Shown piece after piece: positions 45,310 to 58,878 of a stretch of DNA of 64,000 nucleotides (positions are counted from its first letter, which is position 1; each line of letters begins with the position of its first letter). The notes under the pieces are model-generated. The model was not told where the DNA came from and did no database searches. It was given only the letters and a program-made list of their open reading frames with translations. The DNA is from a virus, in IMG/VR virus record IMGVR_UViG_3300008259_004660, positions 32,001-96,000 of that record; one strand, 5' to 3'. A program made the position numbers and the translations under genes.

Positions 45310-45843
45310 ATGGGATACACAACTGACTTCAATGGTGACTTTGGTCTTGATAAGGTGCTCGCCCCCGAGCACAAAGCCTACTTGCAAAAGTTTGCTCAAA
45401 CGCGCAGAATGAAGCGCAAGGAAGAGCTTACGCTTGAACGCGAAGACCCTATCCGCGATGCTGCGGAACTTCCCGTCGGCTATGACGGTGCATATTTTGT
45501 CGGTGAATTGGGAGACTTTGGTCAAGGAATCGGACACAATCAAAAAGGCATTCCCGACCTTGTTGACTATAACAATCCTCCGTCTGGTCAGCCAAGTCTG
45601 TGGTGTCAATGGACTCCGAGCGATGATGGTTATTCAATCAAATGGGACGGTGGTGAGAAGTTCTATCATTATGTGGAGTGGATTGAGTATCTCATCGAAC
45701 ACTTCCTTAAGCCGTGGGGTTACACTCTTAACGGCGAGGTGGAGTGGTATGGCGAGGACGCCAATGATCGCGGCATGATTGTTATTGACAACAACGTTGT
45801 TAAGACCAAGATTGCTCGTATTGTTTACGAAGACGCCGAATAA
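45310..45843 (+). CDS. Conserved phage hypothetical protein
   Basis: MGYTTDFNG ... PSLWCQW ... WDGGEKFY.YVEWIEYLI..FL. Confidence 0.75.
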   Translation: MGYTTDFNGDFGLDKVLAPEHKAYLQKFAQTRRMKRKEELTLEREDPIRDAAELPVGYDGAYFVGELGDFGQGIGHNQKGIPDLVDYNNPPSGQPSLWCQWTPSDDGYSIKWDGGEKFYHYVEWIEYLIEHFLKPWGYTLNGEVEWYGEDANDRGMIVIDNNVVKTKIARIVYEDAE

Positions 45844-45844
45844 A

Positions 45845-46036
45845 ATGAGCAACAAGCAATACTATACAGACAACAAAGGTAGATGGATTGGTTCTGTCAC
45901 CACCGAAAGCAATGGTCGCAAGACCATTTTGGATAACAAAGGTGCTCTACTCGGTCGAGTGCACGATGGTAAGACACTTGACAACAAAGGAGCATTTTTT
46001 GGACGCGGAGATCAATCACAAAGACTGTTCAAGTAA
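45845..46036 (+). CDS. Small beta-repeat protein
   Basis: Three D-N-K-G repeats (YTDNKGRWIG, ILDNKGALLG, TLDNKGAFFG). Confidence 0.6.
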   Translation: MSNKQYYTDNKGRWIGSVTTESNGRKTILDNKGALLGRVHDGKTLDNKGAFFGRGDQSQRLFK

Positions 46037-46042
46037 AATTTG

Positions 46043-46315
46043 ATGACAAACAACGACACCGTAAAAATTCTTATCATTGATAGCGCCAAGACGCCGATTC
46101 ATACAGAGAAGTATGAATTCAATGCCACTGACGCTGATAAAATCAAAGAGACAATTCTTTCATCTCTTAATCGACTTGGCAAAGCAACACATGCATTAAT
46201 CAAGTACAAGAACGAGTATTTTATTGCAGATCATACTGCACAAGGTAAGAATATGTCTGAAACATATTATCGCCACAAGATCAAGTATCATCCGTTTATG
46301 AAGTATTTAGCATGA
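46043..46315 (+). CDS. Hypothetical protein
   Basis: ATG 46043. Confidence 0.55.
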   Translation: MTNNDTVKILIIDSAKTPIHTEKYEFNATDADKIKETILSSLNRLGKATHALIKYKNEYFIADHTAQGKNMSETYYRHKIKYHPFMKYLA

Positions 46316-46542
46316 ACATCTATCATCTAGACATCAAAGATAAAGAAGATCATCAGTTTGACATTGATTATCATTTTTCTCATCCTACAAAAGGTGCATC
46401 AAATCTGTATGATGATTTCTACACAGCATATGACAAGGTAAGTGAAAGTGAGAATGATTGGAACATTGTTGACATTTTAAATGAACTTGGTAATATGGGA
46501 TGGACAAAAGTAGATGTTCTAACGGTAGATGTCTTTTATTAA
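46312..46542 (+). CDS. Hypothetical protein
   Basis: ATGA overlap. Confidence 0.55.
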   Translation: MNIYHLDIKDKEDHQFDIDYHFSHPTKGASNLYDDFYTAYDKVSESENDWNIVDILNELGNMGWTKVDVLTVDVFY

Positions 46543-46821
46543 AAAATTAAAAAACCATCACTTTTTTCTCGACAAATAGAATATATATGCTAAAGTAGAA
46601 TTGTTCTTTAAATAACATAGATAGGTAAGCATCCCTTTGATGAACCTACGGTGCGCATATCGCGCCGCCAGAATAATACAAGCTACAGACAGAGATGAAA
46701 GAAGCAAGTAGAGATAATGGTGGAGAGAAAGCGACAAACAAACATAGACAAAGATCATTGCTTGGTTAAATCGTAGGCTGTGGATGGATGGAGAATCAGT
46801 CGGTTTGAAAAATAATTTTGT

Positions 46822-46896
46822 GGCAGGGTAGAGTATGCGGTAACTCGTCACGCTCATAATGTGAAGCAACGGATTCAAACGCCGTCCCTGCTCCCA
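46822..46896 (+). tRNA. Divergent tRNA with CAT anticodon (Met-like, non-canonical T-arm)
   Basis: GGCAGGG/CCCTGCT acceptor, GAGT/ACTC D-stem, TCACG-CTCATAA-TGTGA, T-loop TTCAAAC with A53:G61 mismatch, 3' CCCA. Confidence 0.6.
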
Positions 46897-46937
46897 ATTT
46901 TGTATGTGTCCTGCGACGGGGCATACAAGAAAAAAAG

Positions 46938-46971
46938 AAAAGACCACGCTCCCGAAGGCGTGGTCTTTTTT
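46938..46971 (+). terminator. Intrinsic terminator
   Basis: aaagaccacgc/gcgtggtcttt stem plus T-run. Confidence 0.75.
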
Positions 46972-47010
46972 CTTGACTTTTTTAAAAAAAGTCTCCAAGA
47001 TGTTCGCACG

Positions 47011-47157
47011 ATGAAACCCTGCGTCAAGGTTGGAAACAAACTCATTCCACGCAAAAACGTGGAGTTTATTGATATTGAAGAGTGTCCTCTTACTGGCAGA
47101 GATATCATCACGTTTGAATACAAAGGCAATATTCACAAGTCTTATCTCTTTATCTAA
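47011..47157 (+). CDS. Hypothetical protein, 48 aa
   Basis: Promoter cassette at 46974, CACG-ATG. Confidence 0.6.
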   Translation: MKPCVKVGNKLIPRKNVEFIDIEECPLTGRDIITFEYKGNIHKSYLFI

Positions 47158-47158
47158 A

Positions 47159-47497
47159 ATGAACATCGACTCTATTAGCATCAATGAGTATGATCTGCCC
47201 ATGATCATTCGCAACAATGTGCGAATTGATTGGGTCAATCTTGGTGAAGGAAATGATGGGGATTATGACCCAACTGACAAGTATGATGAAAACCTTCTTC
47301 GTTTTGATGTTTATCGCTTCGACGGCAAGGAGTGGGAAGCTATTGAAGATGGTAGCTATTGCACTCAAGTAGCTGCTGGTACAGACCAAAAGATTTTGAT
47401 TGAACATCTTCGTCACTTTATGGACACCATCTATGACGATGTTTCCACACACGGCAAAGCAAAGCGACTCTGCGAACAGCTTTCTTGGATTGAATAA
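47159..47497 (+). CDS. Hypothetical protein
   Basis: LGEGNDGDYDP..D.NLLRFDV ... SYCT pattern. Confidence 0.65.
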   Translation: MNIDSISINEYDLPMIIRNNVRIDWVNLGEGNDGDYDPTDKYDENLLRFDVYRFDGKEWEAIEDGSYCTQVAAGTDQKILIEHLRHFMDTIYDDVSTHGKAKRLCEQLSWIE

Positions 47498-47500
47498 TTC

Positions 47501-47537
47501 TTGACTTTTTATAAAATTAATGTAGGATGGTCGCACG
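47501..47537 (+). promoter_or_regulatory. Representative early-type promoter cassette (TTGACT-N16-YANNNT-N7-10-ATG), repeated dozens of times 15.7-59.6 kb
   Basis: TTGACT 47501, spacer ttttataaaattaatg, TAGGAT 47523, ggtcgcacg, ATG 47538; same layout at e.g. 20454, 20816, 22003, 42112, 44428, 45272, 46974, 49241, 49750, 52468, 54161, 55593, 58841, 59306. Confidence 0.85.
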
Positions 47538-48257
47538 ATGAACGAACTACTCCTCGCCAAACTCAAGAAGCTCCTCAATCTCAGCAAGTCCGCCAACATT
47601 CACGAGGCGGAGCTTGCTCTCCAAAAGGCTACGGCAATGGCGGCAGAAGCTGGTATCGACCTTGCGATGGTAACTGCCAAGGCTGACAGCGAGGCTGAGA
47701 AGCTGGAAATGGTGCAGGAGACTGCCTTCAATGGCAAGCGTCTGCCTAGCCTTCAGAAGTATGCCTCTTGGCTCCTAAACAAGCATTTCAATGTCCACGT
47801 GATTTATTCTGGCGGGCGCTACTTTGGTCGCAGCGTCAACATTCTCGGAGACAAGCGTGATGTCGAGTTTGCCAAGTTCGTCAACGAGTTTGTGCAGGAT
47901 GATATGCAGCGCCGTTGGGAGTATTACAAGAAGAGCAACGGTTTGAGCGTGCGCATGAAAGACACTTTCATGTACAACCTTTGGCGTGGGTTGGACAGCA
48001 AGCTGACCGAAGCCAAGGCGGCGGCGGAAACTGCCAAGTTCAACGCTATGCCGCAGGAGCAGGTGGCGGACACCAAAGCTCGTTATGGCATCGTGATTTC
48101 GGACAAGAAGGCGGCGGTGCAGCAGTTCGTCAGCAAGACTTATCCCCGCTTGTCAAGCACAAGAATTTCGGTTCGCAACTTTTCTAACTCGACAGTTGCG
48201 ACGGATGGGTATTCAGTTGGGCGTTCAATGAACATCAGCCGCCCAATCGCATGCTAA
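47538..48257 (+). CDS. DUF2786-like protein
   Basis: LLAKLKKLLNLSKSANIHEAELALQKA N-terminus. Confidence 0.7.
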   Translation: MNELLLAKLKKLLNLSKSANIHEAELALQKATAMAAEAGIDLAMVTAKADSEAEKLEMVQETAFNGKRLPSLQKYASWLLNKHFNVHVIYSGGRYFGRSVNILGDKRDVEFAKFVNEFVQDDMQRRWEYYKKSNGLSVRMKDTFMYNLWRGLDSKLTEAKAAAETAKFNAMPQEQVADTKARYGIVISDKKAAVQQFVSKTYPRLSSTRISVRNFSNSTVATDGYSVGRSMNISRPIAC

Positions 48258-48736
48258 CCTATCGCCAAAATATCACCCACTACCCACAGTTGGGAGCATA
48301 CAACTGTGGGCCTGTGGCCCTTTCCTGCCTCTTTGACACCTCGTTGGAGCAACTGGAGAAAATGGTGGAATGCGACAAAGACAAGGGCACGTACACCACC
48401 AAGGTGGTTGACGCAATGAAGCGTGAGAAAATTGAGTGCAGCCATATCTCCCTTAATGGTGACGGTGAAAACCATCTGTGGTGGTTGGAGCTTAACTCCT
48501 ACCGTTGGCCCATCTACCTTGGTTGTCACTTCATCGTGCAGGGCAAGCGTGGTCGCCCCAGCAACCACCATCACGCTGTGCTGCTCGCGAATGGTATGAT
48601 CTATGATGGCAACAGCCATCGTGAGGAGCCAATCGGTGCTGTCGCAGAGAAGTTCAACAAGAAGTTTGTTGTGAAAGATGCAATCATCTTCCATCATGAA
48701 TTGAAGGGTTGGAAACAAAATTTGGAAGCCGCATAA
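48251..48736 (+). CDS. Papain-fold peptidase (C39-like)
   Basis: Q..AYNCGPVAL ... HHAVLL..G.IYD. Confidence 0.65.
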   Translation: MLTYRQNITHYPQLGAYNCGPVALSCLFDTSLEQLEKMVECDKDKGTYTTKVVDAMKREKIECSHISLNGDGENHLWWLELNSYRWPIYLGCHFIVQGKRGRPSNHHHAVLLANGMIYDGNSHREEPIGAVAEKFNKKFVVKDAIIFHHELKGWKQNLEAA

Positions 48737-48968
48737 CTTTTTTCACGAAAAATTAAATTTTTTGTTGACTTTGTTTGGAAATAAAATATTTATCGGTGAT
48801 CCCTTTTTCTCCGATGAAGCTCATAATTTCCAGTGGTAAAATTTTAAAGGTCAATCACCCAAATCTTCCTATACCAGCCCCCACGCAATTACCCGCGCCA
48901 AGATTGGTCACAGAAAAAAAAGTGAAAAAGCCTTGACATTTTTTATTTTTTAATCATCCTAATTAGCA

Positions 48969-49142
48969 ATGAACACTTACAAAGTACCTGTTACTTGGAG
49001 AGAGTATGGTCATGTCTTTGTCAAGGCAGACAGTATTGAAGAAGCTATTCAAAAAGCCCACGATGAAGATTTGCCCCACGACAACAGCGAATATCTTGAA
49101 GGTAGTTTTGAAATTGATTACGAGGGCGTTCGCGCAATCTAA
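48969..49142 (+). CDS. Hypothetical protein, 57 aa (not in ORF track)
   Basis: TTGACA promoter about 48933; MNTYKVPVTW...VKADSIEEAI. Confidence 0.65.
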   Translation: MNTYKVPVTWREYGHVFVKADSIEEAIQKAHDEDLPHDNSEYLEGSFEIDYEGVRAI

Positions 49143-49148
49143 CCATAC

Positions 49149-49225
49149 GCGACCGTAGCTCAGTTGGATAGAGCAACAGATTTCTAATCTGTGGGTCGTG
49201 GGTTCGAATCCCACCGGTCGCGCCA
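49149..49225 (+). tRNA. tRNA-Arg(TCT)
   Basis: Canonical cloverleaf, ACAGA-TTTCTAA-TCTGT, GGTTCGAATCC, CCA. Confidence 0.95.
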
Positions 49226-49278
49226 TTCTAAAAATAATTCTTGACTTTTTATAAAAATCTGTCAACCTAATCAGCACT

Positions 49279-49746
49279 ATGGGACTAGATATGTATCTCA
49301 GCGCCGAGAAGTATATCTCGGGTTATGACCACGACAAGAATGAGAACTTCGGCAAAGTTCTTGATCTTTTTAATCTAAACGAGGATGATGTTCACAATTC
49401 TATCACGGTCAACATCACCGTTGGTTATTGGCGCAAGGCCAATGCCATTCATAATTGGTTCGTTCAAAATATACAGGATGGTAGGGATGATTGCCAACGC
49501 AGCTATGTTCGCCGCGAAAAACTACTTGAGTTGAAGAGTGAGTGTGAAGCTGCTCTTGCTGCCTACAACAATGGTGACAAGGATACGGCGGAAAACCTAA
49601 TTCCTCCTACTAGTGGATTTTTCTTTGGAAGCACCGAAGTTGATGATTGGTACAAGGCCGATTTGGTTGAAACCATCAAAATCATTAACACGTGTTTGAG
49701 TGATAAGTTAAATGGATTTGGATTTTACTACCAATCCAGTTGGTAA
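49279..49746 (+). CDS. Conserved phage hypothetical protein
   Basis: MGLDMYL ... YWRKANAIHNWF ... GFFFGS ... YQSSW. Confidence 0.75.
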   Translation: MGLDMYLSAEKYISGYDHDKNENFGKVLDLFNLNEDDVHNSITVNITVGYWRKANAIHNWFVQNIQDGRDDCQRSYVRREKLLELKSECEAALAAYNNGDKDTAENLIPPTSGFFFGSTEVDDWYKADLVETIKIINTCLSDKLNGFGFYYQSSW

Positions 49747-49785
49747 TACTTGACTTTTCTTAAAAAGTATCCACACTTCTACTCA

Positions 49786-50103
49786 ATGAACGCTACGAAC
49801 ATCGAACCTCAAACCTGCCACTACATCACTGCCAACACGTTGGCAAAGATGAGCAAGAATGCTGCCGAGGCTATTGATGCCTTGTTCAACTCTGATTTGG
49901 ATGTTAGCTTTGGCGATGCTAATCGCACTCTGATCGACATCCCTCATTTCCTACGCCTATTGGAGGATGGTATGGAGCAGCAGGGTATTTTTTGGGTTCC
50001 TCTTGGCCCCGATGATGACGAGACGCACCACGCTGGTTACGAGGAAATCAAGAACGCGCTTGACGAATACACTAACGAAGTTTACATTGATCTCGAAAAC
50101 TGA
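49786..50103 (+). CDS. Hypothetical protein
   Basis: ATG 49786 after promoter at 49750. Confidence 0.65.
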   Translation: MNATNIEPQTCHYITANTLAKMSKNAAEAIDALFNSDLDVSFGDANRTLIDIPHFLRLLEDGMEQQGIFWVPLGPDDDETHHAGYEEIKNALDEYTNEVYIDLEN

Positions 50104-50115
50104 AATAACACCACG

Positions 50116-50307
50116 ATGAAACTGACGCAATACATCCGCCAACTCCAAGAAATCGCCAAGAAGCAGCCTGACGCAGAAGTGATTTATGCGGCAGACGAAG
50201 AAGGTAATAGTTATTCTCCTGTTTTTTACGAGCCGTCTCTTGGTTATTTTGATGGAGACAGTTTTGACACCACGGCGAAGCCTGTCAACGCCATCTGTAT
50301 CAACTAA
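50116..50307 (+). CDS. Hypothetical protein
   Basis: CACG-ATG; V.YAADEEGNSY pattern. Confidence 0.65.
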   Translation: MKLTQYIRQLQEIAKKQPDAEVIYAADEEGNSYSPVFYEPSLGYFDGDSFDTTAKPVNAICIN

Positions 50308-50316
50308 TTTTAGCTC

Positions 50317-50392
50317 GGGCTGGTAGCTCAACGGTCAGAGCAGAGGACTCATAATCCTTTGGTTAGGGGTTCGAATCCCTTCCGGCCCACCA
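50317..50392 (+). tRNA. tRNA-Ile2 (CAT, lysidine type) most likely
   Basis: GGGCTGG/CCGGCCC acceptor, GAGGA-CTCATAA-TCCTT, CCA; resembles ileX-type rather than fMet. Confidence 0.88.
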
Positions 50393-50402
50393 CTTTTATC
50401 AT

Positions 50403-50588
50403 ATGAAAACAATAATCAACAAAATAAAGGAGAACTCCACACAACTTATTCAAGGACTGTTTCTTGGTCTTTTTCTAACAATGGGTATTTTCAACATCGT
50501 TGATGGCATTTTCTTTTCAAAGATTATGTGGCAGACGAACTGCGGAGTTAATCAGATCATCATCGGTGCAATCATGTCCAAGATTTAG
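50403..50588 (+). CDS. Small membrane protein
   Basis: Two hydrophobic segments. Confidence 0.5.
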   Translation: MKTIINKIKENSTQLIQGLFLGLFLTMGIFNIVDGIFFSKIMWQTNCGVNQIIIGAIMSKI

Positions 50589-50638
50589 TTCTTGACTTTT
50601 TATAAAGAACAAGTACTCTGTGTCTTGTTCTTTTCAAT

Positions 50639-50713
50639 GGTCTTGTAGCTCAATGGTAGAGCCGTTGACTTTTAATCAATTGGTTGTGGGTTCGAATCCC
50701 ACCGGGACCACCA
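50639..50713 (+). tRNA. tRNA-Lys(TTT)
   Basis: GTTGA-CTTTTAA-TCAAT, GGTTCGAATCC, CCA. Confidence 0.93.
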
Positions 50714-50717
50714 ATTT

Positions 50718-50792
50718 CGCGATGAACCCAAAGACAAGGAGGGGGTGGGCTCGGTTCCCACAATAGTGCGTGAAAGCTCGCACCATCGCACA
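50718..50792 (+). ncRNA. tRNA-like cloverleaf, CGG in anticodon position, non-canonical loops
   Basis: GCGATG/CATCGC, CCC/GGG, GTGGG-CTCGGTT-CCCAC, GTGCG-TGAAAGCT-CGCAC; no CCA. Confidence 0.55.
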
Positions 50793-50846
50793 ATTTTTAT
50801 TGACAATTTAGGTAGGTAAGTCATAGTTATCTTTGTTCTTTTTAAT

Positions 50847-50921
50847 GCCGAGTTAGCACAATGGCGGTGCAACTGTTTTGTAAACAGTAGGTTGTCGGTT
50901 CGAATCCGACACTCGGCTCCA
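50847..50921 (+). tRNA. tRNA-Thr(TGT)
   Basis: GCCGAGT/ACTCGGC, ACTGT-TTTGTAA-ACAGT, CCA. Confidence 0.93.
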
Positions 50922-51038
50922 TTTTTCAGACAGAGGTGCAAGTAAGTCGTCTACATCCTCTGGAGTACTGCATAAGGTGCTTGACAGCAGTAAATAACAG
51001 GGCTCATGATCCTGCCTCTTTATCTGAACATTTTTTAC

Positions 51039-51113
51039 GCCGCTATCGTCTAACGGTTAGGACGCCGGATTTTCATTCCGATAATCGGGGTTCGATTCCC
51101 CGTAGCGGTACCA
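51039..51113 (+). tRNA. tRNA-Glu(TTC)
   Basis: GCCGCTA/TAGCGGT, GTC/GAC D-stem, loop TTTTCAT, GGTTCGATTCC, CCA. Confidence 0.92.
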
Positions 51114-51118
51114 ATTTT

Positions 51119-51313
51119 ATGAACGATTCTCATTTACTTCCTCCTCAAGCAGACATTGACGCTGCACTTCAGATTGAAAAGAGTGTGAAGCCAAGTGAGC
51201 GTGAGCGTTATTTGGAGTACATGAACAATGTTCCTATGTCTGACCGCAAGACCGCAAGAGAATTGCGTGATGGATGTATCTTGAGCCAACTTTTCAATCG
51301 TTTTCGCAGTTAA
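51119..51313 (+). CDS. Hypothetical protein
   Basis: ATG 51119 just after tRNA-Glu. Confidence 0.55.
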   Translation: MNDSHLLPPQADIDAALQIEKSVKPSERERYLEYMNNVPMSDRKTARELRDGCILSQLFNRFRS

Positions 51314-51432
51314 AGTTCTTGACTTTTTTTAAAATCTGTTCATTCTATCTCTTGTCAATGAGGTTTGGAAGCCGTCAACTGCCTCATCATTAAATTCAGG
51401 TATTGCTGAATGGCGCGGCCCAATTTTTGTTC

Positions 51433-51539
51433 TTTGTGGCCACAAAAACCGGTGTCAGGGAGCCCACAGGGTTATCCCTTATTGTGGGGAACGCTAGTCC
51501 CACGGCTCCACGGGGAGTCTCCGGAAATCTAGCGCGCCA
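51433..51539 (+). ncRNA. Unassigned structured RNA candidate ending in GCCA
   Basis: GGAGCC/GGCTCC enclosing CCCACA/TGTGGG and AGGG/CCCT stems; 14-bp palindrome TTTGTGGCCACAAA at 5' end. Confidence 0.4.
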
Positions 51540-51589
51540 ATTTTCTCTTGACTTTTTTTAAAATCTGTTCATTCTCTTCTTTGTTCTTT

Positions 51590-51814
51590 GGTAGTATCAA
51601 GACAGATAAAAGTCGCCTTGCGCGATGGAATCAAAGTTGAACAGTGATGTGTTCAATGAAAGGGTTTGGATTTATCACCAAATACCTGAGATTTAACCGA
51701 CCAGCGCCACCATTAAAAGCAAAGCCACACGGCATTGATTCGTCGGAAAGAGCAGCTTGAAAGTGTGAAACTCTTGCGGAACAGCAGAATTCCGCTATCT
51801 GTCTTGATATTATC
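51590..51814 (+). ncRNA. Unassigned 225-nt multi-branched structured RNA candidate
   Basis: 19-bp closing stem 51590-51608/51796-51814 with two G-U pairs; internal hairpins TTGAACA/TGTTCAA, GTTTGG/CCAAAT, AAGAG/CTCTT, GCGGAA/TTCCGC; own promoter at 51548; no plus-strand ORF. Confidence 0.6.
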
Positions 51815-52000
51815 ATTGACTTTCTTTAATTTTTGTTCATTCTCTTCTTTGTTCTAGGGTGCATTGCCAATAGGAAGTACTCACGGAACTACAGTAAGCA
51901 ACAGTTAGTGCGGAACTCGTGACGAAGATTCTGATCAAATCCTAGTTAGCGTGATTATGGATCGGCTCCATCGCTGTTGCTGAAATCTTTTTTGTTCTTT

Positions 52001-52170
52001 TGATTTTCTCTCATTATTCCGCAACATTGTAAAAGGTGAAGCGCGTGTATCGAAAAATGTAATGGGAGAATATTTTTTGGCAGGTCGCTCTGCCGGAACT
52101 CTAAAATCTATGCCAAGCGCTAGTGACCCTTGCCGGTATCACACAGGTTGACCTCTGGATTTTAGAGAAT
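52001..52170 (+). ncRNA. Two further stem-enclosed RNA candidates
   Basis: attttctctcatta/taatgggagaatat stem; GGCAG/CTGCC hairpin; CTCTAAAATC/GATTTTAGAG stem. Confidence 0.4.
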
Positions 52171-52178
52171 ATTTTTAC

Positions 52179-52260
52179 GCAGTGTTGGTGTAGCTGTGCA
52201 ATAAACATAGTTGGCAATCCTGCCAAAAGTCGGGCAGCGCGTCCTGCTCACACTGCTCCA
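52179..52260 (+). ncRNA. tRNA-like RNA with perfect acceptor stem and CCA but non-canonical arms
   Basis: GCAGTGT/ACACTGC-T-CCA; CTGTG/CATAG; TTGGC-AATCCT-GCCAA; GGGCAG-CGCGTC-CTGCTC. Confidence 0.6.
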
Positions 52261-52305
52261 ATTTATCTTGACTTTTTTTAATTCTTCAACGACACTATCA
52301 GCAAG

Positions 52306-52470
52306 ATGAAACTTGAATGCTGCGATGTTGAGTTAGATTATGAGAGTGCTGGACGGCGTGACACCGAGACGATTGGTGGATACAGCGTCGAGTATTTTAT
52401 CTGTTCTGAATGCAAGCAGCGTTATGAACTTATCGGAAATAGTTTGTGTATGACTGAAGAAGAGCCTTGA
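52306..52470 (+). CDS. Small Zn-ribbon-like protein (not in ORF track)
   Basis: ECC ... CSEC; promoter at 52268. Confidence 0.55.
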   Translation: MKLECCDVELDYESAGRRDTETIGGYSVEYFICSECKQRYELIGNSLCMTEEEP

Positions 52471-52503
52471 CTTTCTTTAAATTTAGTTCAAACTGACTTC
52501 ACG

Positions 52504-52704
52504 ATGAAGCCCGAATATCGCATTCAGATTTACGACAAGCAGTACCTTGAATGGAATACTTTTCCTGATGGATGTTTTGATAGTAAAGAAAAGGCTATTG
52601 CTGAAGCGGTTAAGGTTCTTAAGGGGTGGGGTAAACGCAATCACAAGATTCGTTTGATTGAAGTGTGTGAGAAAGTTATTCGGCTTCCAAGCATCAAGAA
52701 ATAA
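52504..52704 (+). CDS. Hypothetical protein
   Basis: Promoter cassette, CACG-ATG. Confidence 0.65.
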   Translation: MKPEYRIQIYDKQYLEWNTFPDGCFDSKEKAIAEAVKVLKGWGKRNHKIRLIEVCEKVIRLPSIKK

Positions 52705-52709
52705 ATCAT

Positions 52710-52916
52710 ATGGAACACCCTCTATATTATGCCATTGATTATGATCTTAATGTGATCAAGTTGGGTTATTTTGACAACGATCATCTTGCTTGGCTTTATA
52801 CTGAAAAAAAGGAGATTGAGTTTATGAAAATTCTTAATCACGCTGAACTGATTACTCTTTACAACAACATTGATGCTGCCACATCAGATTCATTGGCTGG
52901 ACAACCTTTTGCTTGA
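52710..52916 (+). CDS. Hypothetical protein
   Basis: Stop in next -35 box. Confidence 0.55.
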   Translation: MEHPLYYAIDYDLNVIKLGYFDNDHLAWLYTEKKEIEFMKILNHAELITLYNNIDAATSDSLAGQPFA

Positions 52917-52950
52917 CTTTTTTTATTTAGGTCTCCATACTACTCCCATA

Positions 52951-53244
52951 ATGAAAATCAAACTGCAAGAAGCTCTTGACCTTATTCAAGCTGCTGATGT
53001 TGTTCGTGTAACTGATATGGATGGATTTATTGAGCCTATCATCTCATTCAGTGATATTGAAGGCAAGCCAGACAATGAGTTTATGTATATGAGTTGGGAT
53101 GATGAACATGATGAGTTTGGTGCCAGATTTCTTGAAGAAGGCAATGAAGAAGTAGAGCGTGATGGCAACAAGATTGCTATCACCGACAGCGAAGGCAGCG
53201 AGTTTGAGTTTAATCTGTTTCGCCTAGTGCCGATTCTAGCTTGA
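52951..53244 (+). CDS. Hypothetical protein
   Basis: ATG 52951 after promoter at 52913. Confidence 0.6.
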   Translation: MKIKLQEALDLIQAADVVRVTDMDGFIEPIISFSDIEGKPDNEFMYMSWDDEHDEFGARFLEEGNEEVERDGNKIAITDSEGSEFEFNLFRLVPILA

Positions 53245-53328
53245 CTTTTAATACATAGGCGCGTAACCTGACTGCCTATCAACGTGGAGCCAACCAAGCA
53301 CAACTCCACCAATCATTTTAAAAATCAA

Positions 53329-53691
53329 ATGCCTCGTCCAAAGAAGATCAAAGTTGAAGTTCCCAAAGGACCGCCCAAGAAACGTGGGCGCAAACCCAAG
53401 CCAAAGGTTTTGAGCATCAAAACTGAAGAAGGTTACACAGAAATTCCTTTGGATGGTTTGAAATTTCCTTGGACTGGTAATCCAGATTATTTCAAGAGCG
53501 AATCAACTCCATTAAGCATCAGCGAGATGACCAAGGAATCTTGTGCTTATCCCAATCGCTACCTTGATGATCAATGCTTTGGATGTTCCATCTATGATTC
53601 TTGTAGATGTTCTTTGAAGTACAACAAAGAAGATATGAAAAAGCCAGTTGAAAAGGTGAAGATTAAGAAGTTAAGTTCATTCGATTCATAA
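53329..53691 (+). CDS. AT-hook-like basic protein with C-terminal Cys cluster
   Basis: PKKRGRKPKP; CAYP...CFGCSIYDSCRC. Confidence 0.55.
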   Translation: MPRPKKIKVEVPKGPPKKRGRKPKPKVLSIKTEEGYTEIPLDGLKFPWTGNPDYFKSESTPLSISEMTKESCAYPNRYLDDQCFGCSIYDSCRCSLKYNKEDMKKPVEKVKIKKLSSFDS

Positions 53692-53778
53692 CTTATTTGA
53701 AATTAAAGTGTTAGAGGACGGGAGAAAAGGGTAAAAAGTTACAATTTTTCTTGATTTTTTTTAAAAATATGTCAGAGT

Positions 53779-54117
53779 ATGGCCAAGATGAACGCCACCA
53801 AGAAAGACACCGTCCAGTACGTCAAGAATCAACTCGCCACCAACAAGGTGTGGGCGCTGAAGGCTCTGATCCGCATCTATCAGGAGAACCAAACTGCCGA
53901 TGAGCAGGCGGCGAAGGTCACCAGTCACGACAACGGCATTGGTTTCAGCGGCTGTGATGCCGAGTTCCTTTCTAGTCTCGCGGAGCAGTATCTGCGCCGT
54001 GGTAACCTGAGCGACAAGCAAATGAGTTTCGTCCACCGCAAGATGCCGAAGTATGCTCGGCAGGTCATCGCGATGAGCGATGCATCCAAGTTGGACGCTA
54101 TGGTCGTAGCGGGGTAA
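53779..54117 (+). CDS. Conserved phage hypothetical protein
   Basis: KALIRIY..QTADEQ...NGIGFSG.DA.FLSSLA.Q ... LS.KQ ... MPKY. Confidence 0.75.
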   Translation: MAKMNATKKDTVQYVKNQLATNKVWALKALIRIYQENQTADEQAAKVTSHDNGIGFSGCDAEFLSSLAEQYLRRGNLSDKQMSFVHRKMPKYARQVIAMSDASKLDAMVVAG

Positions 54118-54197
54118 CCCCTGCTGTGGGGTGCGCACACAAATCACGCACAATAATTCTTGACTTTCTTTAATTTAAAATCCAAGATACTTGCACG

Positions 54198-54422
54198 ATG
54201 AAATACGGAAACATCAGCAACGTGATGGTATTCAAGACCGAGGAAACTTTCAACAAGGCGTTGGCCCTTCTCACGAAGAACGGTCACGGTTTCGAGATGA
54301 GTGGCTATCCTCTTGCTCTCAATTTCTATCCTGAACACCGCCACAGCTATGTTTATGCTCAGATCGATCTGGCGTTGGCTGGCATCAATGACGGAGAAGA
54401 TTATGGAATCAAGTATCGTTAA
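54198..54422 (+). CDS. Hypothetical protein
   Basis: Promoter cassette, CACG-ATG. Confidence 0.65.
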   Translation: MKYGNISNVMVFKTEETFNKALALLTKNGHGFEMSGYPLALNFYPEHRHSYVYAQIDLALAGINDGEDYGIKYR

Positions 54423-54464
54423 TTACTTGACTTGTTTTAAATTTAACACCAACATATCAGCACT

Positions 54465-54650
54465 ATGAACTACGCTTACTTGTCTGGATACCTTCAAAGC
54501 GCATTGGAAAATCTCGCTTATGATGACAAATTTCTTAAGATGAAAAGTGATGATCGTCGTAGGGATTATCTTCGAGAAATGGTTCGTGAGGCTCAACTCA
54601 AGGCAATTGAATTCGAGTCCGAAGTTAATTCCAAGATGATCAAGATCTGA
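54465..54650 (+). CDS. Hypothetical protein
   Basis: Promoter cassette, CACT-ATG. Confidence 0.6.
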   Translation: MNYAYLSGYLQSALENLAYDDKFLKMKSDDRRRDYLREMVREAQLKAIEFESEVNSKMIKI

Positions 54651-54656
54651 AAATTT

Positions 54657-54950
54657 ATGTCGAACAAAACCAAACGCATCAAGTACAACACGCCGCTGAC
54701 ATTTCCTCAGACATTTACTCTGAGGGAACTGCGAAAGGCAAACGCGAACAAGATGAAGCTGATTACCATCTACTCACGTGTGCAGAATGGAATTGAAAAT
54801 GGTACCATTGAAGAGGTTGGTATTCAACAGCCGTCTGTGTCTCGTCGTGGACGCAAGGAGATTGTCTACAAGATTGTGGAGGTGGTAGGTGCCCCTGCAT
54901 GCAACATTGCACCCATCACTGATGGCAACAGTTCAGACAATCCTTTTTGA
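54657..54950 (+). CDS. Hypothetical protein (possible winged helix)
   Basis: FTLRELRK ... RRGRKEIVY. Confidence 0.55.
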   Translation: MSNKTKRIKYNTPLTFPQTFTLRELRKANANKMKLITIYSRVQNGIENGTIEEVGIQQPSVSRRGRKEIVYKIVEVVGAPACNIAPITDGNSSDNPF

Positions 54951-54952
54951 AA

Positions 54953-55327
54953 ATGAAGTTAACTAATTTCCAAAAGTGGTATTACACTACACTTCCCAAG
55001 ATCTTTGAATCTGGTGACAATGTCGATGGATGGATCCGATTCGAAAGCAAATATCGAAAAATGGATGCATTTTACAATAAAAGATATGGCACAGTTGTGA
55101 AGCGTCCAAAGTTTATTATGGATAAGCGCACTCCGCTTTATTTGCGCGTACCCACAATCAATTTAGGTGATGGATGGGTTCTTCAGCCAATTGTGAAGAA
55201 AACCAATTTAAAGAAAGCTGTCAATGAAATCAAATCTGCACTCAAGAAGCACTCCGCTATTAATCCAGACATTCACGTTGGAAATGTTGGATGGTATGAA
55301 GGTAAACCATTGATGTTTGATTGGTGA
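54953..55327 (+). CDS. Miniature protein-kinase-like fold protein
   Basis: TVVKRP, WVLQP, DIHVGNVG, LMFDW. Confidence 0.45.
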   Translation: MKLTNFQKWYYTTLPKIFESGDNVDGWIRFESKYRKMDAFYNKRYGTVVKRPKFIMDKRTPLYLRVPTINLGDGWVLQPIVKKTNLKKAVNEIKSALKKHSAINPDIHVGNVGWYEGKPLMFDW

Positions 55328-55371
55328 AATTTTCTTGACTTTAAATAAAAATGAGGTCTTAATAACCCACG

Positions 55372-55596
55372 ATGAAATACGAATACGTTGCTGAAAAAAT
55401 TGCAGTGTTCATTACTGCATTGTGCGTTATTTTTTTGGGATCTTTGGTTCTTGCGCTTCCTTTGCTTTGGCTTTGGAACGCAACAATGCCTGAGTTATTT
55501 GGTCTAAAAGAAATTAGTTGGTGGATGGCTTGGAAGCTTATGCTACTCTCATCCATTCTGTTCAAGAATTTCTTCAGCACATCAAAAAGTTCTTGA
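55372..55596 (+). CDS. Small membrane protein
   Basis: LLWLWNATMPELFGLKEISWW pattern; CACG-ATG. Confidence 0.65.
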   Translation: MKYEYVAEKIAVFITALCVIFLGSLVLALPLLWLWNATMPELFGLKEISWWMAWKLMLLSSILFKNFFSTSKSS

Positions 55597-55630
55597 TTTT
55601 TATAAAAATTCTGCGATACTATTCAACATC

Positions 55631-55999
55631 ATGAGCAACACCACCATCGTTGAGAAGCTGAATCTGGATATGCCGCTCACGGATTTCATTCGTGGCGTGA
55701 ACAAGATCATCAATGATCATTGGACCAGTTCTGGGTTTGTCCACAACGATGCTCCGCTTGTGATGGTGGACAGTGTTGGACCCAAATATGCCAAGTTGGC
55801 GGTCTATGAGAAGCGTCCAGCTAAAACTGGTCCGCTTGTGGCGGAGCGGGTGTATTGCTTCTACAATCACACCAACGGCGACCTTCTCAAGGGAAGTTGG
55901 AAGGCTCCTGTGGCCAAGGGTGTGCGTGGCAATGTGAAGGAAACCAATGTGCTGGACAAGTTTGATTGGCACGGCCCCAAGTATCTGCGGGGTCTGTGA
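55631..55999 (+). CDS. Conserved phage hypothetical protein
   Basis: GPKYAKL ... NGDLLKGSWKAPVAKGVRGNV. Confidence 0.7.
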   Translation: MSNTTIVEKLNLDMPLTDFIRGVNKIINDHWTSSGFVHNDAPLVMVDSVGPKYAKLAVYEKRPAKTGPLVAERVYCFYNHTNGDLLKGSWKAPVAKGVRGNVKETNVLDKFDWHGPKYLRGL

Positions 56000-56044
56000 T
56001 TTTCTTCTTTACTTTTTATAAATCTGTGCTAGAGTATACGCACG

Positions 56045-56263
56045 ATGAACAACGAAACTTGGACCGAGTGCTTCAGTCAGTATCGCCTTCTTGGTGGTCT
56101 CACCCAAGCTATGCTGCGCAAGTGGGCGGCGGATTTCTTGGTAGAGCGTGGGTTTGACGAGATTGGATCCTCTGACATCAACCACAGCCTCTTTGATATG
56201 TGGGAGGCGGCGGGCGGCGATTGGCAGAAGGCGATCCTTAACGAGGTAGATGCTCGCAGTTAA
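56045..56263 (+). CDS. Hypothetical protein
   Basis: Promoter cassette, CACG-ATG. Confidence 0.65.
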   Translation: MNNETWTECFSQYRLLGGLTQAMLRKWAADFLVERGFDEIGSSDINHSLFDMWEAAGGDWQKAILNEVDARS

Positions 56264-56310
56264 AATAATTCTTGACTTTACTTAAAACATAAACCAACAT
56301 AAACACCGTT

Positions 56311-56607
56311 ATGATTAATCCTCCCAACACTGTTATCTTCCAATATGTCCGCAATCGGCGGCGGCAGAAGGTCGGCGTCGTTGCCGCTTTGAAGCGAAGC
56401 GACAACACGGTCGGTCTCGGTTATAGTCTTTGCGCTACCAATCGGGGCGACACTTTCAATCCTACCACCGCGCTAAACATCGCGCTTGGTCGGGCTGATA
56501 CCTTCCCCCATTTTGAGTGCAAGGAGATTCCGCAGAGCGTGGAGAAGGACTGGAGCGAGATCTATGATCGCGCCGTCCGCTACTTCAAGGGCTGCGAGAT
56601 CGGTTAA
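56311..56607 (+). CDS. Conserved phage hypothetical protein
   Basis: GLGYSLC..RGDTFN..ALNIALGRA. Confidence 0.65.
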   Translation: MINPPNTVIFQYVRNRRRQKVGVVAALKRSDNTVGLGYSLCATNRGDTFNPTTALNIALGRADTFPHFECKEIPQSVEKDWSEIYDRAVRYFKGCEIG

Positions 56608-56688
56608 AGTTTCCACGGTGGGGAGCGCATACCAGTTCACGCTCACTTTTTTCTTTACTTTTAATAAAAATCTGTCAGTGTTTGCACC

Positions 56689-56913
56689 ATGAACTCTGCC
56701 ACCATCTCCAACAACGAAGTTGCTGCTGTCTACTCTGCTCGCGATGGACGCGAGTATCTGACCATCGACATTCCCAATGGTTGGGATGATGTCAAGAAGC
56801 TGACCAAGAAGGTGCTGACCTACAACGGCAGCAAGTTCGTGTTCACGGGTTGGAACAGCGACACGCTCAAGTGCTACTTTGTTGGCACAAAGAATGTGGC
56901 GACGATTTCTTAA
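56689..56913 (+). CDS. Hypothetical protein
   Basis: Promoter cassette, CACC-ATG. Confidence 0.65.
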   Translation: MNSATISNNEVAAVYSARDGREYLTIDIPNGWDDVKKLTKKVLTYNGSKFVFTGWNSDTLKCYFVGTKNVATIS

Positions 56914-56956
56914 CTTTTTTCTTTACTTTTAATAAAAACCTGTCACTGTATTCACC

Positions 56957-57262
56957 ATGAACTCCACCATTACCTTCGCTGACGCTGGGCTGTTTGCTAT
57001 CGCCGTGACCGCCCTTGAGATGGATGCAACTCCTCCCTACACCGTGGACGAGGACACTCTCACCATCAACGCCGAGGACATTGATGGTGTGGTGGACATT
57101 CTCCACGACAACGGTATCTTCAACTTCATCTGCTATCGCGCCGATGGCGACACGGAGCACGATCAGTTCCGCAGTGATGCGGAGGCTGATGCCGATGCCC
57201 TCGCCTCTGCTGGATTCGGCACTGATGAGGACTATGGCTACTACGGTGGCGACGATGAGTAA
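56957..57262 (+). CDS. Acidic hypothetical protein
   Basis: CACC-ATG; DADALASAGFGTDEDYGYYG tail. Confidence 0.65.
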   Translation: MNSTITFADAGLFAIAVTALEMDATPPYTVDEDTLTINAEDIDGVVDILHDNGIFNFICYRADGDTEHDQFRSDAEADADALASAGFGTDEDYGYYGGDDE

Positions 57263-57458
57263 GATGGTTGGCCCCGCCAGCTTGGACGACATCCTTAATG
57301 GGCCTCGTCCAAGACTGGTGGGTCGGTTGGTGTTTGACCACAAGACCGCGCCGAGCTTGATGCTCCTCACAGAAGATCAAGCAAAAGCACATGACAAGGC
57401 AACACGCCGAGCAGGTTATGGCACTTGTTTAAAAAGAGTTTCGCCACACCGTTCTTGA
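57255..57458 (+). CDS. Hypothetical protein
   Basis: ATG 57255 overlapping previous stop. Confidence 0.5.
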   Translation: MSKMVGPASLDDILNGPRPRLVGRLVFDHKTAPSLMLLTEDQAKAHDKATRRAGYGTCLKRVSPHRS

Positions 57459-57491
57459 CTTTAATTAAAAAATAATCATCATTTCATCACA

Positions 57492-57788
57492 ATGAGCTAC
57501 AACATCTCTAGTTGCTTGATCAAGTCGTCTGCGATTACCAGCCATCCTAATGGTGAACTGACCACACGAGCTTTTGTTAATTATTTTGACAATCAGTTTG
57601 TTGGAAAGTTCAGTCCTGTCAAAGTGGAAAAGCTTGATATTACCAATTCAAATGGTGTAAGTTTTTTTAAGCGTGATGCTGATATCAGCGTTTCTGCTCT
57701 TCGCGCCATTGCTGCTGGTTTAATTGAAATTGCCGATAGTGCTGAACAGGCGCATGCTCGTATGGCTGAATTGAACAAGAAGGCTTGA
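57492..57788 (+). CDS. Hypothetical protein
   Basis: Promoter cassette at about 57456. Confidence 0.65.
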   Translation: MSYNISSCLIKSSAITSHPNGELTTRAFVNYFDNQFVGKFSPVKVEKLDITNSNGVSFFKRDADISVSALRAIAAGLIEIADSAEQAHARMAELNKKA

Positions 57789-57821
57789 CATTGGTTAAAA
57801 CAACATTCAATCTATCTACCT

Positions 57822-58511
57822 ATGCCTAATTGGTGCTCAAACACAATCGTTGTTAGTGGTGAAGCTGCTGATGTTGTCGAATTCAATGAGTGGCTTGGCG
57901 ATGGCAAGGCTCTGCTGTCCAAGATCAATCCTACGCCAACACAGTTGACTGAAACTACCGCTGGGTTTCACGGTGATCCTGAAAAGCAAAAAGAGCTTGA
58001 AAAGCAAGAGCAATCTAATCTTGAACAGTTTGGTCACAAGAACTGGTATGATTGGAACATTGCCAATTGGGGAACCAAGTGGGATGTTGATGCTGAAGTG
58101 GATGATGTCAGCAGCATTAATGAACAGATTATTTTTAGTTTTGAAAGTGCTTGGGCTCCACCGCAGCGTGCCATCTCTGCTATTGCTGAAAAGTTCAACA
58201 AGTTGACCATTCGTCATTCTTATCTTGAAGAGGGTGTTGGTTTCGTTGGATATGATTTGTATGAGAAGGGCGAGTTAGCCAACGAAGAATACAATGAGGA
58301 CTCTGATAGTGATGCTTGGAAGCAGCTTGCGCAGGATGAATTTGGTTGGGAGCCTTGGCCCGACGATGATACTGAACTGGAGCAGGTTGAAGTCACGGAA
58401 GTTCCAAAGCCTGCTGAAAAGCCTGCCAAGAAAAAGGTGAAGAAGACTGCTGTCAAAAAGACTTCCAAGAAAACGACAAAGAAAGTCGCAAAGAAGAAAA
58501 AGAAGAAGTAA
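57822..58511 (+). CDS. DUF1281/Api92-like protein with Lys-rich tail
   Basis: MPNWCSN ... WYDWNIANWGTKWD ... FESAWAPP ... YLEEG. Confidence 0.75.
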   Translation: MPNWCSNTIVVSGEAADVVEFNEWLGDGKALLSKINPTPTQLTETTAGFHGDPEKQKELEKQEQSNLEQFGHKNWYDWNIANWGTKWDVDAEVDDVSSINEQIIFSFESAWAPPQRAISAIAEKFNKLTIRHSYLEEGVGFVGYDLYEKGELANEEYNEDSDSDAWKQLAQDEFGWEPWPDDDTELEQVEVTEVPKPAEKPAKKKVKKTAVKKTSKKTTKKVAKKKKKK

Positions 58512-58537
58512 AATTTGGTGAGGTAGGTGTTCATAGT

Positions 58538-58571
58538 GGCGGGGGAGCGTAGTGGCTCCCCCGCCTTTTTT
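58538..58571 (+). terminator. Intrinsic terminator (copy 1)
   Basis: ggcgggggagc/gctcccccgcc stem plus T-run. Confidence 0.85.
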
Positions 58572-58610
58572 CTTGACTAACTTTAATTTTTAATCTTTAA
58601 TAAGAGCAAC

Positions 58611-58844
58611 ATGGACACCAAAGAATTTAATCGCGATCAATTGAAAAAATGCTTTCTTGATCTTTCAATACGAGCAAAAGAACTGAATGAACCCTACATC
58701 CAAAGTGTAGCAATGGTTCTTGCCGCATCAATTGCAGAAGAAAGTGATGCTGCTCTTGCTATTTGGGTAGGTGAGTTTGCCAAGATGAGAATTGATGACA
58801 TTGAAGATCAGATATTTGGTGAAGAAGATGAAAATGCGCCTTGA
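58611..58844 (+). CDS. Hypothetical protein
   Basis: Promoter cassette; stop in next -35 box. Confidence 0.6.
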   Translation: MDTKEFNRDQLKKCFLDLSIRAKELNEPYIQSVAMVLAASIAEESDAALAIWVGEFAKMRIDDIEDQIFGEEDENAP

Positions 58845-58878
58845 CTTTTGATAAAAAAGAATCATAGTTATCAGCACT

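Follow-up and report, generated by a model that had tools for sequence, protein, structure and literature searches.

What is encoded at positions 52179 to 52260 on the plus strand of a viral DNA stretch of 64,000 nucleotides (nt), in a region where six ordinary tRNA genes are called and this one is not? The stretch, referred to here as the window, covers positions 32,001 to 96,000 of the virus record IMGVR_UViG_3300008259_004660, a record of 184,824 bp that is estimated to be 78% complete (G000). An original prediction made from the sequence alone had described the element as a tRNA mimic that could be charged but would not decode. We found that it belongs to a family of 13 distinct sequences in five subtypes, all from related phage contigs, in which all four helices show compensatory changes and the bacterial glycine identity set never varies. 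Judged from these sequences, the element is almost certainly a real, functional structured RNA and very probably derives from a tRNA whose L-shaped core it would keep, which supports that proposal in part; that it is non-decoding is also probable, with only slightly less confidence. Taken as a whole, the reading that we favor, at a little under an even chance, is that of a tRNA-processed, non-decoding tRNA-Gly mimic that would be recognized and probably glycylated through its glycine identity and would act as a bait or sink for host factors directed at tRNA-Gly.

Sequence and fold of the element

On direct reading, the element divides into the parts of a cloverleaf:

52179 to 52185 (+): 5' strand of the acceptor stem, GCAGUGU (positions 1 to 7), pairing with 52250 to 52256
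52186 to 52187 (+): positions 8 and 9 (U8, G9); U8 is invariant in all members, likewise A14, its canonical tertiary partner
52188 to 52208 (+): D arm, stem GUGU/ACAU with the 13-nt loop AGCUGUGCAAUAA, which lacks G18G19; the stem is 100% paired in 13 sequences
52209 to 52210 (+): linker AG between the D arm and the anticodon-like arm, 1 to 2 nt in all members
52211 to 52226 (+): anticodon-like arm, stem UUGGC/GCCAA and loop AAUCCU, with UCC at 52218 to 52220; UCC is invariant and 4 of the 5 pairs covary
52227 to 52231 (+): variable loop AAGUC, 4 to 5 nt in all members
52232 to 52249 (+): T-like arm GGGCAG-CGCGUC-CUGCUC, 6 bp with a 6-nt loop and no TΨC motif
52250 to 52256 (+): 3' strand of the acceptor stem, ACACUGC, pairing with 52179 to 52185
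52257 to 52260 (+): discriminator U73 and encoded CCA, the same in every one of the 13 distinct sequences

The features that had been claimed for this sequence can all be read from it: a perfect acceptor stem followed by U73 and an encoded CCA, a 6-nt anticodon loop that contains UCC, a T loop without TTC, and an enlarged D loop. The helix layout is that of a canonical tRNA, with a 7-bp acceptor, a 2-nt connector, a 4-bp D stem, a 5-bp anticodon stem, and a variable loop of 4 to 5 nt. The departures from a canonical tRNA are in the anticodon loop, which has 6 or 5 nt instead of 7 in every member, and in the elbow, where there is no 5-bp T stem with a 7-nt TΨCRA loop and the short D loops lack GG. 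The end bases of AAUCCU (A...U) are able to pair, which would close the loop to an AUCC tetraloop on a 6-bp stem, and because the T arm has 6 bp, the acceptor/T stack counts 13 bp and not 12.

Standard tools pass over the element. The Rfam tRNA model RF00005 gave no match at the gathering score or at E<=10, and the same searches of the locus returned no tmRNA or tRNA-like structure; the long form of the element, described below, had no Rfam match either. ARAGORN made no call at default settings and only a weak “tRNA-Ala” call when its threshold was set to 60%. The six ordinary tRNAs that ARAGORN calls lie at 46822-51113, and five of them score 62-75 bits in Rfam (the tRNA-Met at 46822 scores 42.3 bits). 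Taken alone, the folding energy of the element is unremarkable (z = -1.5), and the window contains 5 perfect 7-bp acceptors with NCCA after them, versus 2.4 expected in shuffles, two of the five being AT-rich accidents. The single sequence by itself is therefore not beyond chance, and the significance of the element comes from its homologues.

Homologues, covariation, and fixed positions

Homologues were reached through the helicase encoded at 42148-43539, which served as an anchor and led to the related virus records G001, G002, and G003 (the last one complete, at 297 kb). A database search with this helicase returned 1941 homologues; its cultured relatives are all distant (below 32% identity), and neither megablast nor blastn matched the DNA to deposited phages. 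A DUF2786 protein, also tried as an anchor, had no relatives in the viral collection and was dropped. DNA and covariance-model searches found one copy of the element each in G000, G001, and G003. A pattern built from the T arm and the 3' end then gave 19 more metagenome loci together with a single contig of 3.3 kb from the bin of a Flavobacteriales metagenome-assembled genome (MAG), and the helicase anchor combined with the covariance model gave two divergent members, in G004 (L050:6319-6390, 27.6 bits) and G012 (L088:5633-5701, 24.2 bits). MAFFT misaligned the 3' halves of divergent members, and a descriptor search written in Python (the helices, a 5-6-nt loop with UCC, and CCA) was used in place of a second covariance model. 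It recovered all members in the 1.86 Mb of fetched loci; the extras were one canonical tRNA-Gly(UCC) and two spurious sequences, and shuffled DNA gave 1 match. A looser T-arm pattern and a loop-based pattern, both run on viral contigs, returned known members and chance matches in coding DNA only, and a pattern from the 5' half led outside the family, to a degenerate remnant (L068) and to a genuine tRNA-Gly(GCC) from another phage (L065). The helicases of the phages that retain the element are only 61-66% identical. In more distant phages (helicases 36-51% identical), neither the model nor the descriptor found a member; the element is absent from the syntenic island of G002 and from the available sequence of G008, G010, and G013.

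The shared structure is borne out by covariation. In a model-based alignment of the 13 sequences, 96.8% of cells are paired, and the unpaired ones come only from the L024 type, which is off by one column in the alignment; its true stem, ACGAC/GUCGU, pairs throughout, and with this type in register, all helices are 100% paired. Both sides have changed in 13 of the 22 pairs, compared with 4.4 ± 1.6 in shuffles (0 of 500 shuffles reach 13), and in sliding-partner controls the pairing falls to 22-45%. The minimum free energy (MFE) folds of G001, L024, G004, and G012 each give the same cloverleaf independently, and in most members MFE folding closes the anticodon-like loop to 3-4 nt.

Compensatory changes are found in every helix. 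The acceptor stem, whose conservation among relatives had been named as the test of the original prediction, is conserved in this sense: across the 13 sequences, pairs 1 and 2 are invariant and pairs 3 to 7 all show compensatory changes (5' strands GCAGUGU, GCGGUGU, GCGGUUA, and GCGAAUG), with pair 3:70 being A-U or G-C. In the D stem, pair 10:25 occurs as G-C, G-U, and A-U, and the anticodon stem has five different sequences over six subtype lineages, the window type and the G003 type sharing UUGGC/GCCAA. The anticodon-like loops are AAUCCU, AUUCCC, and UUUCCA (6 nt) or UUCCA (5 nt), and never 7 nt. The T arm of the main family reads GGGCMG-CGYGUY-CKGCUC, with one pair changing from A-U to C-G; in G004 it is CCC/GGG with GUCAAAAA and in G012 UCC/GGA with CUUCAAAC, that is, a 3-4-bp stem with an 8-9-nt A-rich loop. 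The D loop varies in length, from 6 nt in G004 and G012 through 13 nt in the short forms to about 75 nt in the G003-type long forms, in which an insertion of roughly 60 nt folds into an extended hairpin. Beyond the helices, the Levitt pair 15:48 covaries, being G15:C48 in the window type and G001 and A15:U48 in all other subtypes. A pairing of the D loop with the T loop, R20:Y62, has one covariation (G:C in the window type, A:U elsewhere) and was kept as a hint only, as the long forms pair that segment of the D loop otherwise.

G1-C72, C2-G71, U73, CCA, U11-A24, G12-C23, C31-G39, and the UCC of the loop are fixed in the family, while drift occurs in acceptor pairs 3 to 7, in 4 of the 5 pairs of the anticodon stem, in the bases beside UCC in the loop, and in the T arm and D loop. 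The bacterial glycine identity set consists of U73, G1-C72, C2-G71, C35, and C36 (PMC9976931), and all five of these are invariant in the 13 sequences. G1-C72, C2-G71, and U73, put forward earlier as tRNA-Gly identity elements, thus belong to the published set and never vary among the homologues. For 11 of the 13 sequences, the search pattern had fixed the T arm, position 66, and positions 71 to 76 and had left the loop, the 5' half, and positions 67 to 70 free; the anticodon-like loop was free in all search patterns bar the loop-based one. The members in G004 and G012 were reached without an RNA pattern, and they keep GC..GC-U-CCA and carry UUUCCA and AAUCCU loops, with GCGGUUA and GCGAAUG acceptors and differing T arms. 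Global similarity to canonical phage tRNAs was rejected as evidence for glycine, since without L065 the scores for tRNA-Cys and tRNA-Arg are much the same; it is the identity positions that carry the glycine assignment. As an observation beside this, the canonical tRNA-Gly genes of relatives (L047:823-898, L047:1236-1311, and L048:18573-18648) differ in their discriminator, with U73 in the tRNA-Gly(UCC) of G003 and A73 in the tRNA-Gly(GCC) of G003 and the tRNA-Gly(UCC) of G001. The presence of A73 in two of these three genes, compared with U73 in every mimic, is suggestive.

Transcription unit, cassette behavior, and genomic setting

The flanks of the element bear on how the RNA might be made. 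Three features frame it:

51816 to 51843 (+): putative promoter of the unit that ends in the element, TTGACT, a 16-nt spacer, and CATTCT; a copy of the motif CTTGACTTTYTTTAA
52172 to 52178 (+): 5' leader TTTTTAC, presumed RNase P context; cleavage would precede G52179
52267 to 52281 (+): next promoter, an exact match to the motif, outside the RNA and starting 7 nt past CCA

The promoter-like motif CTTGACTTTYTTTAA has 32 copies at 40600-59320 of the window, all on the plus strand, versus 0.8 expected by chance, and it precedes almost every small gene or RNA unit, often directly 3' of the preceding unit. A motif scan found no further copy between the promoter at 51816 and the element; this unit holds three other stem-bounded segments, with the element last, and has no terminator. 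The leader TTTTTAC matches that of a genuine tRNA-Glu (leader at 51030-51038, tRNA-Glu at 51039), and almost all homologues have TTTTAY before G1, the sequence farther 5' being unrelated. Downstream, the element encodes its CCA, as do the real tRNAs here, and ATTT follows. No terminator was found between CCA and the promoter at 52267, and we infer that the 3' end must come from processing. Because the flanks are the same as those of tRNA-Glu and the element has neither a promoter nor a terminator of its own, RNase P cleavage and 3' trimming would be the likely route.

The element behaves as an accessory cassette within arrays of tRNAs and small RNAs. Copies of it within each of the two short subtypes share 99-100% identity, yet the 100 nt on their flanks are unrelated, and the long forms are 91-99% identical; homology between loci starts at the TTTTAY leader and stops about 4 nt past CCA. 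Its neighbors change accordingly, with tRNA-Glu 6 nt upstream in L024 and L041, tRNA-Met 10 nt downstream in G012, and various unnamed structured RNAs preceding it elsewhere. G003 and G001 have canonical clusters of about 30 and about 20 tRNAs, respectively, both with tRNA-Gly(UCC), and G003 also has tRNA-Gly(GCC). Since related phages carry an ordinary tRNA-Gly(UCC), the element is not needed for decoding. In G003, the two anticodon loops can be compared directly: UUUCCAA in the canonical tRNA-Gly(UCC) versus UUUCCA in the mimic.

The two sequences retrieved by the 5'-half pattern are close to the family in that half and are informative about its ancestry. The genuine tRNA-Gly(GCC) of L065 shares the leader and the 5' half (GCGGUAU-UG-GUGU-A...GCAU-G). 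In L068, an unrelated phage tRNA array, a tRNA-like remnant at 9838-9911 (+) lies between tRNA-Gln and tRNA-Ala and has the same 5' half as the family (GCGGUUU-UG-GUGU-AAUGUA-GCAC-G), a 3-nt loop CAA at the anticodon position, a mutated T loop, and a UCUA end instead of UCCA; neither ARAGORN nor Rfam calls it, and it is possibly a decayed relative of the family.

Other conserved RNAs surround the element. Directly 5' of it, at 52080-52170 (+), lies a structured RNA whose 41-nt core AGCGCUAGUGACCCUUGCCGGUAUCACACAGGUUGACCUCU is identical in G003 and whose closing stem covaries (CUCUAAAAUC/GAUUUUAGAG versus CUCUAAAGGUU/AAUCUUUAGAG); it also occurs in L030, L033, L034, L038, and L043 and has no Rfam match. 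A second stem-bounded RNA, at 51897-51981 (+), has the closing stem AGCAACAG/CUGUUGCU and ends in GAAAUC without CCA in the window, and its G001 homologue (L002:18553-18644) has the covarying stem UCAUCAAAG/CUUUGAUGA followed by A-CCA. Its internal hairpin covaries too (AUGGA/UCCAU versus AGGGA/UCCCU), and homologues of it stand directly 5' of the mimic in L026, L035, and L040. Farther upstream, an RNA-like conserved segment follows tRNA-Lys (50714-50800, +; GCGAUGAACCC...CAUCGC), with close homologues in G001 (L002, about 18926-19000) and, after tRNA-Glu, in G002 (L003, about 19945-20030).

At the level of the genome, G000 has its own tmRNA gene at 8603-8996, outside the window (ARAGORN tag AKRNLAKVSFLSVRKNADVEMLAAA), and a tmRNA is also found in L068, another tRNA-rich phage contig (L068:1-302; Rfam, 72.9 bits). 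Three tRNA-Leu genes stand at the very start of the G000 record, which suggests that a large tRNA cluster such as those of G001 and G003 was cut off there. The large tRNA clusters of G001 and G003 each have a gene of the RNA ligase family (PF09414) close by (G001, C1:122252-122761, -, 98 bits; G003, C1:77497-78003, +, 91 bits), and in the window a weak match of 22.7 bits, below the cut-off, falls at 21196-21729 within the open reading frame (ORF) 20851-21999; as context, an RNA ligase beside tRNA clusters would fit pressure on tRNAs. Searches of the phages for further families that might act as partners found no class II aminoacyl-tRNA synthetase core, RtcB, or CCA-adding enzyme. A 351-amino-acid GNAT-domain protein (34922-35977 of the window) was considered as an enzyme acting on aminoacyl-RNA and rejected for want of a PDB relative and because G001, G003, G004, and G012 lack it. 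The lower-GC half of the window (GC of about 0.36, versus about 0.43 past 40 kb) also contains a DUF1800/DUF1501 gene pair typical of cellular genomes (31498-34324, +).

Possible function and relation to known RNAs

In the reading that we favor, a phage tRNA-Gly(UCC) would have been remodeled past decoding into a small, stable RNA that keeps the tRNA shape. This RNA would be transcribed together with the neighboring small RNAs and tRNAs from a strong phage promoter and excised like a tRNA, with RNase P cutting before G1 and the 3' end trimmed to the encoded CCA. It would retain the core tertiary pairs U8-A14 and R15-Y48 and the full bacterial glycine identity set, and by virtue of that set the host glycyl-tRNA synthetase (GlyRS) and other readers of the tRNA-Gly acceptor end may still recognize it and the former probably glycylate it; recognition or charging by GlyRS, considered separately, is in our estimate an even call. 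The 5-6-nt loop and the altered D/T elbow would exclude it from the ribosome. The earlier proposal of a non-decoding RNA is a reasonable one here, because the loop has 5 or 6 nt in every member, the elbow is remodeled and has lost its motifs, the T arm varies in length, and an insertion in the D loop is tolerated. The outcome would be an abundant, off-ribosome stand-in for tRNA-Gly, a bait or sink for, e.g., antiphage toxins that target the acceptor end, which would spare the decoding tRNA-Gly pool. We propose this role tentatively, as somewhat less than probable.

A decoy against anticodon nucleases had been suggested earlier. We moved the target to readers of the acceptor end because it is the acceptor identity that is conserved and because known toxins linked to antiphage defense select tRNA-Gly in this way: the toxSAS FaRel2 and the GNAT toxins TacT and AtaT2 are described as picking tRNA-Gly through its acceptor end (PMC11559606; PMC9976931). 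TacT acetylates Gly-tRNA-Gly, which it selects by U73 and G71 (PMC9976931), and AtaT2 is cited as specific for Gly-tRNA-Gly (PMC11559606). Phages are known to answer tRNA-targeting defenses with tRNAs of their own (PMC10264068). In its most specific form, the proposal is of an aminoacylatable bait that, abundant early in infection and glycylated or uncharged, would absorb toxSAS pyrophosphokinases, GNATs of the TacT/AtaT2 type, or nucleases of the CCA tail; by analogy with these systems we consider it conceivable and, as worded, unlikely. Modification of such a bait would cost the phage nothing because the RNA would be unable to enter the ribosome.

Several observations weigh against the favored reading. 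In 11 sequences the invariance of C2-G71, U73, and CCA is partly ascertainment, because the search pattern prescribed these positions; a freer test comes from G004 and G012 alone, whose scores in turn were given by a model that favors the consensus. The tRNA-Thr genes of these phages share G1-C72, C2-G71, and U73, so that the glycine assignment depends on their combination with the UCC of the loop, and C35 and C36 sit in a loop of 3-6 nt, where GlyRS may or may not read them. Not all determinants of FaRel2 are matched, with 5:68 being U-A and not purine-pyrimidine, and a competing substrate is a weak defense against a multi-turnover toxin. Finally, no protein gene is consistently linked to the element (nearby ORF clusters are inconsistent or overlie RNA genes), and the GNAT gene near it is absent from G003.

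We weighed five other explanations. The element might be a processing or stability module only, a tRNA-like fold that serves as punctuation for RNase P and 3' trimming, so that adjacent small RNAs and tRNAs are freed from a polycistronic precursor, or that protects a 3' end, and that has no partner specific for tRNA-Gly. Such a module would suit its constant place within terminator-less arrays of tRNAs and stem-bounded small RNAs, as well as its conserved leader and trailer. It would need neither an invariant UCC in a covarying hairpin nor invariance of U73 and pairs 1 and 2 while pairs 3 to 7 drift; moreover, the neighbors vary by locus, and those in L024/L041 and G012 are real tRNAs that require no extra punctuation. 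We consider this explanation improbable.

To the same degree improbable is an uncharged mimic that binds other tRNA machinery, either as an uncleavable competitor for an anticodon nuclease or modification enzyme of tRNA-Gly(UCC) or as a sponge for RNase P, a CCA-end effector, or RelA-type sensors. This overlaps the favored reading, the main difference being the need for charging. In its favor are a conserved anticodon triplet, held in a loop whose size is below that of the usual cleavage geometry, and the accessory nature of the cassette; tRNA-targeting immunity, moreover, is described as widespread and as evaded by phage tRNAs through changes in the anticodon loop (PMC10264068). Anticodon nucleases leave the invariant acceptor pairs 1 and 2 and U73 unexplained, and our literature search turned up no described nuclease with specificity for tRNA-Gly(UCC).

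The element might also donate glycine outside the ribosome, for a Fem-type cell wall bridge or to some other host or phage transferase that depends on aminoacyl-tRNA. The precedent is the non-proteinogenic tRNA-Gly(UCC) of Staphylococcus aureus, which is charged by GlyRS and poorly bound by EF-Tu and which the mimic resembles in its tRNA-Gly(UCC) origin, its off-consensus D and T loops, its low scores with tRNA finders, and its retained identity set (PMC8007984; PMC9976931). The S. aureus species are used off the ribosome, as the mimic may be by analogy, but they are cellular genes with a 7-nt anticodon loop, a 5-bp T stem, and FemXAB partners. The mimic, in contrast, is a viral gene that has the UCC in a shortened arm with a 5-6-nt loop, a T arm of 6 bp and 6 nt or of 3-4 bp, and in some forms the D-loop insertion of roughly 60 nt. 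Searches for FemAB (PF02388) and Acetyltransf_6 (PF13480) gave no Fem-type gene in G000, G001, or the complete G003, in contrast to control genomes, which do match; the parallel with peptidoglycan donors drawn in the original prediction is thus without support in the phage genomes. The only GNAT gene near the element is not conserved, there is no linked protein gene, and the sole hint of a host, the 3.3-kb contig of the Flavobacteriales MAG, points to a Gram-negative host without glycine bridges. A donor role therefore seems quite improbable to us.

We give marginally less credence still to an odd but functional decoding tRNA that reads GGR or promotes frameshifting. If C31-G39 were open, the L024 type would have a 4-bp stem and the 7-nt loop CUUCCAG, which is near the canonical tRNA-Gly(UCC) loop, and the others would have 8-nt loops, which occur in frameshift suppressors; U33 is present in three of the four loop types, and since C31-G39 never covaries, its pairing is not proven. 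The arm, though, has 15-16 nt instead of 17, with a length that differs by subtype, and MFE folding closes it to a tetraloop. The TΨC and GG motifs of the elbow are absent, the T arm ranges from 3 to 6 bp, the long D-loop insertion is tolerated, the same genomes have a canonical tRNA-Gly(UCC), and the tRNA covariance model remains silent even at E<=10.

A decaying pseudo-tRNA without function, to which the rejection by tRNA finders and the degenerate remnants in other phage arrays (such as that of L068, with the same 5' half and without UCC or CCA) might point, is effectively excluded by the compensatory changes in all four helices, by retention across phages with such diverged helicases, and by near-identical short-subtype copies amid unrelated flanks with specific positions invariant.

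Among characterized RNAs, the phage mimic would by analogy work most like the S. aureus tRNA-Gly(UCC) species and the pseudo-tRNA tRNAOther of Bacillus cereus, a tRNA-derived gene that has no part in translation and has taken on a different role (PMC3399842). One chromosomal locus accounts for tRNAOther, which is expressed in longer regulatory transcripts, whereas the mimic forms a viral family of several members, has its CCA encoded, and shows flanks of the tRNA type and conservation of the identity set. The phage tRNAs that counter tRNA-targeting defenses as anticodon-loop variants, with examples from T5 and mycobacteriophages, are likewise array genes, and their differences from host tRNAs are read as adaptations to immunity (PMC10264068; PMC11559606); these tRNAs decode and replace damaged host tRNAs, whereas the mimic would act as a bait or competitor. 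The tRNA-like domain of tmRNA and the tRNA-like structures of plant RNA viruses share the mimicry of the acceptor and T arm, an aminoacylated CCA end, and the lack of normal decoding. tmRNA differs in having G3-U70 (alanine), a canonical T loop, and an mRNA-like part, and the viral structures are genome 3' ends built on pseudoknots, while the mimic stands free as a cloverleaf of about 70-140 nt and has C2-G71 and A/G3-U/C70. A tmRNA domain was rejected as an identity for the element, given that 3:70 is A-U or G-C, that the locus has no tmRNA match, and that the genome has a separate tmRNA gene. In its setting, the mimic resembles the small stable RNAs that phage T4 encodes in its tRNA cluster, known as species 1 and 2 or RNA C and D. 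Those are non-tRNA RNAs of 120-140 nt that are matured by tRNA-processing enzymes, have an unexplained function, and are not known to retain any particular aminoacylation identity.

In our literature searches, neither a non-decoding tRNA mimic encoded by a phage nor a bait or competitor role for one was found described. The family also marks a blind spot, as tRNA finders and Rfam miss it despite its place in tRNA arrays, beside other conserved unnamed small RNAs. With the parts of tRNA-Gly read by GlyRS and acceptor-end toxins apparently kept and the decoding parts lost, the mimic may offer, in a minimal natural form, a way to learn the individual requirements of GlyRS, EF-Tu, RNase P, and tRNA-directed toxins. 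Phage tRNA genes are now viewed as answers to host immunity that attacks tRNAs, and the cases described are all working tRNAs. If the mimic is charged or acts as a bait, it would add a layer of RNA mimicry to phage counter-defense, and if the bait reading in particular is true, it would represent a new class of RNA counter-defense, namely, substrate mimicry of tRNA.

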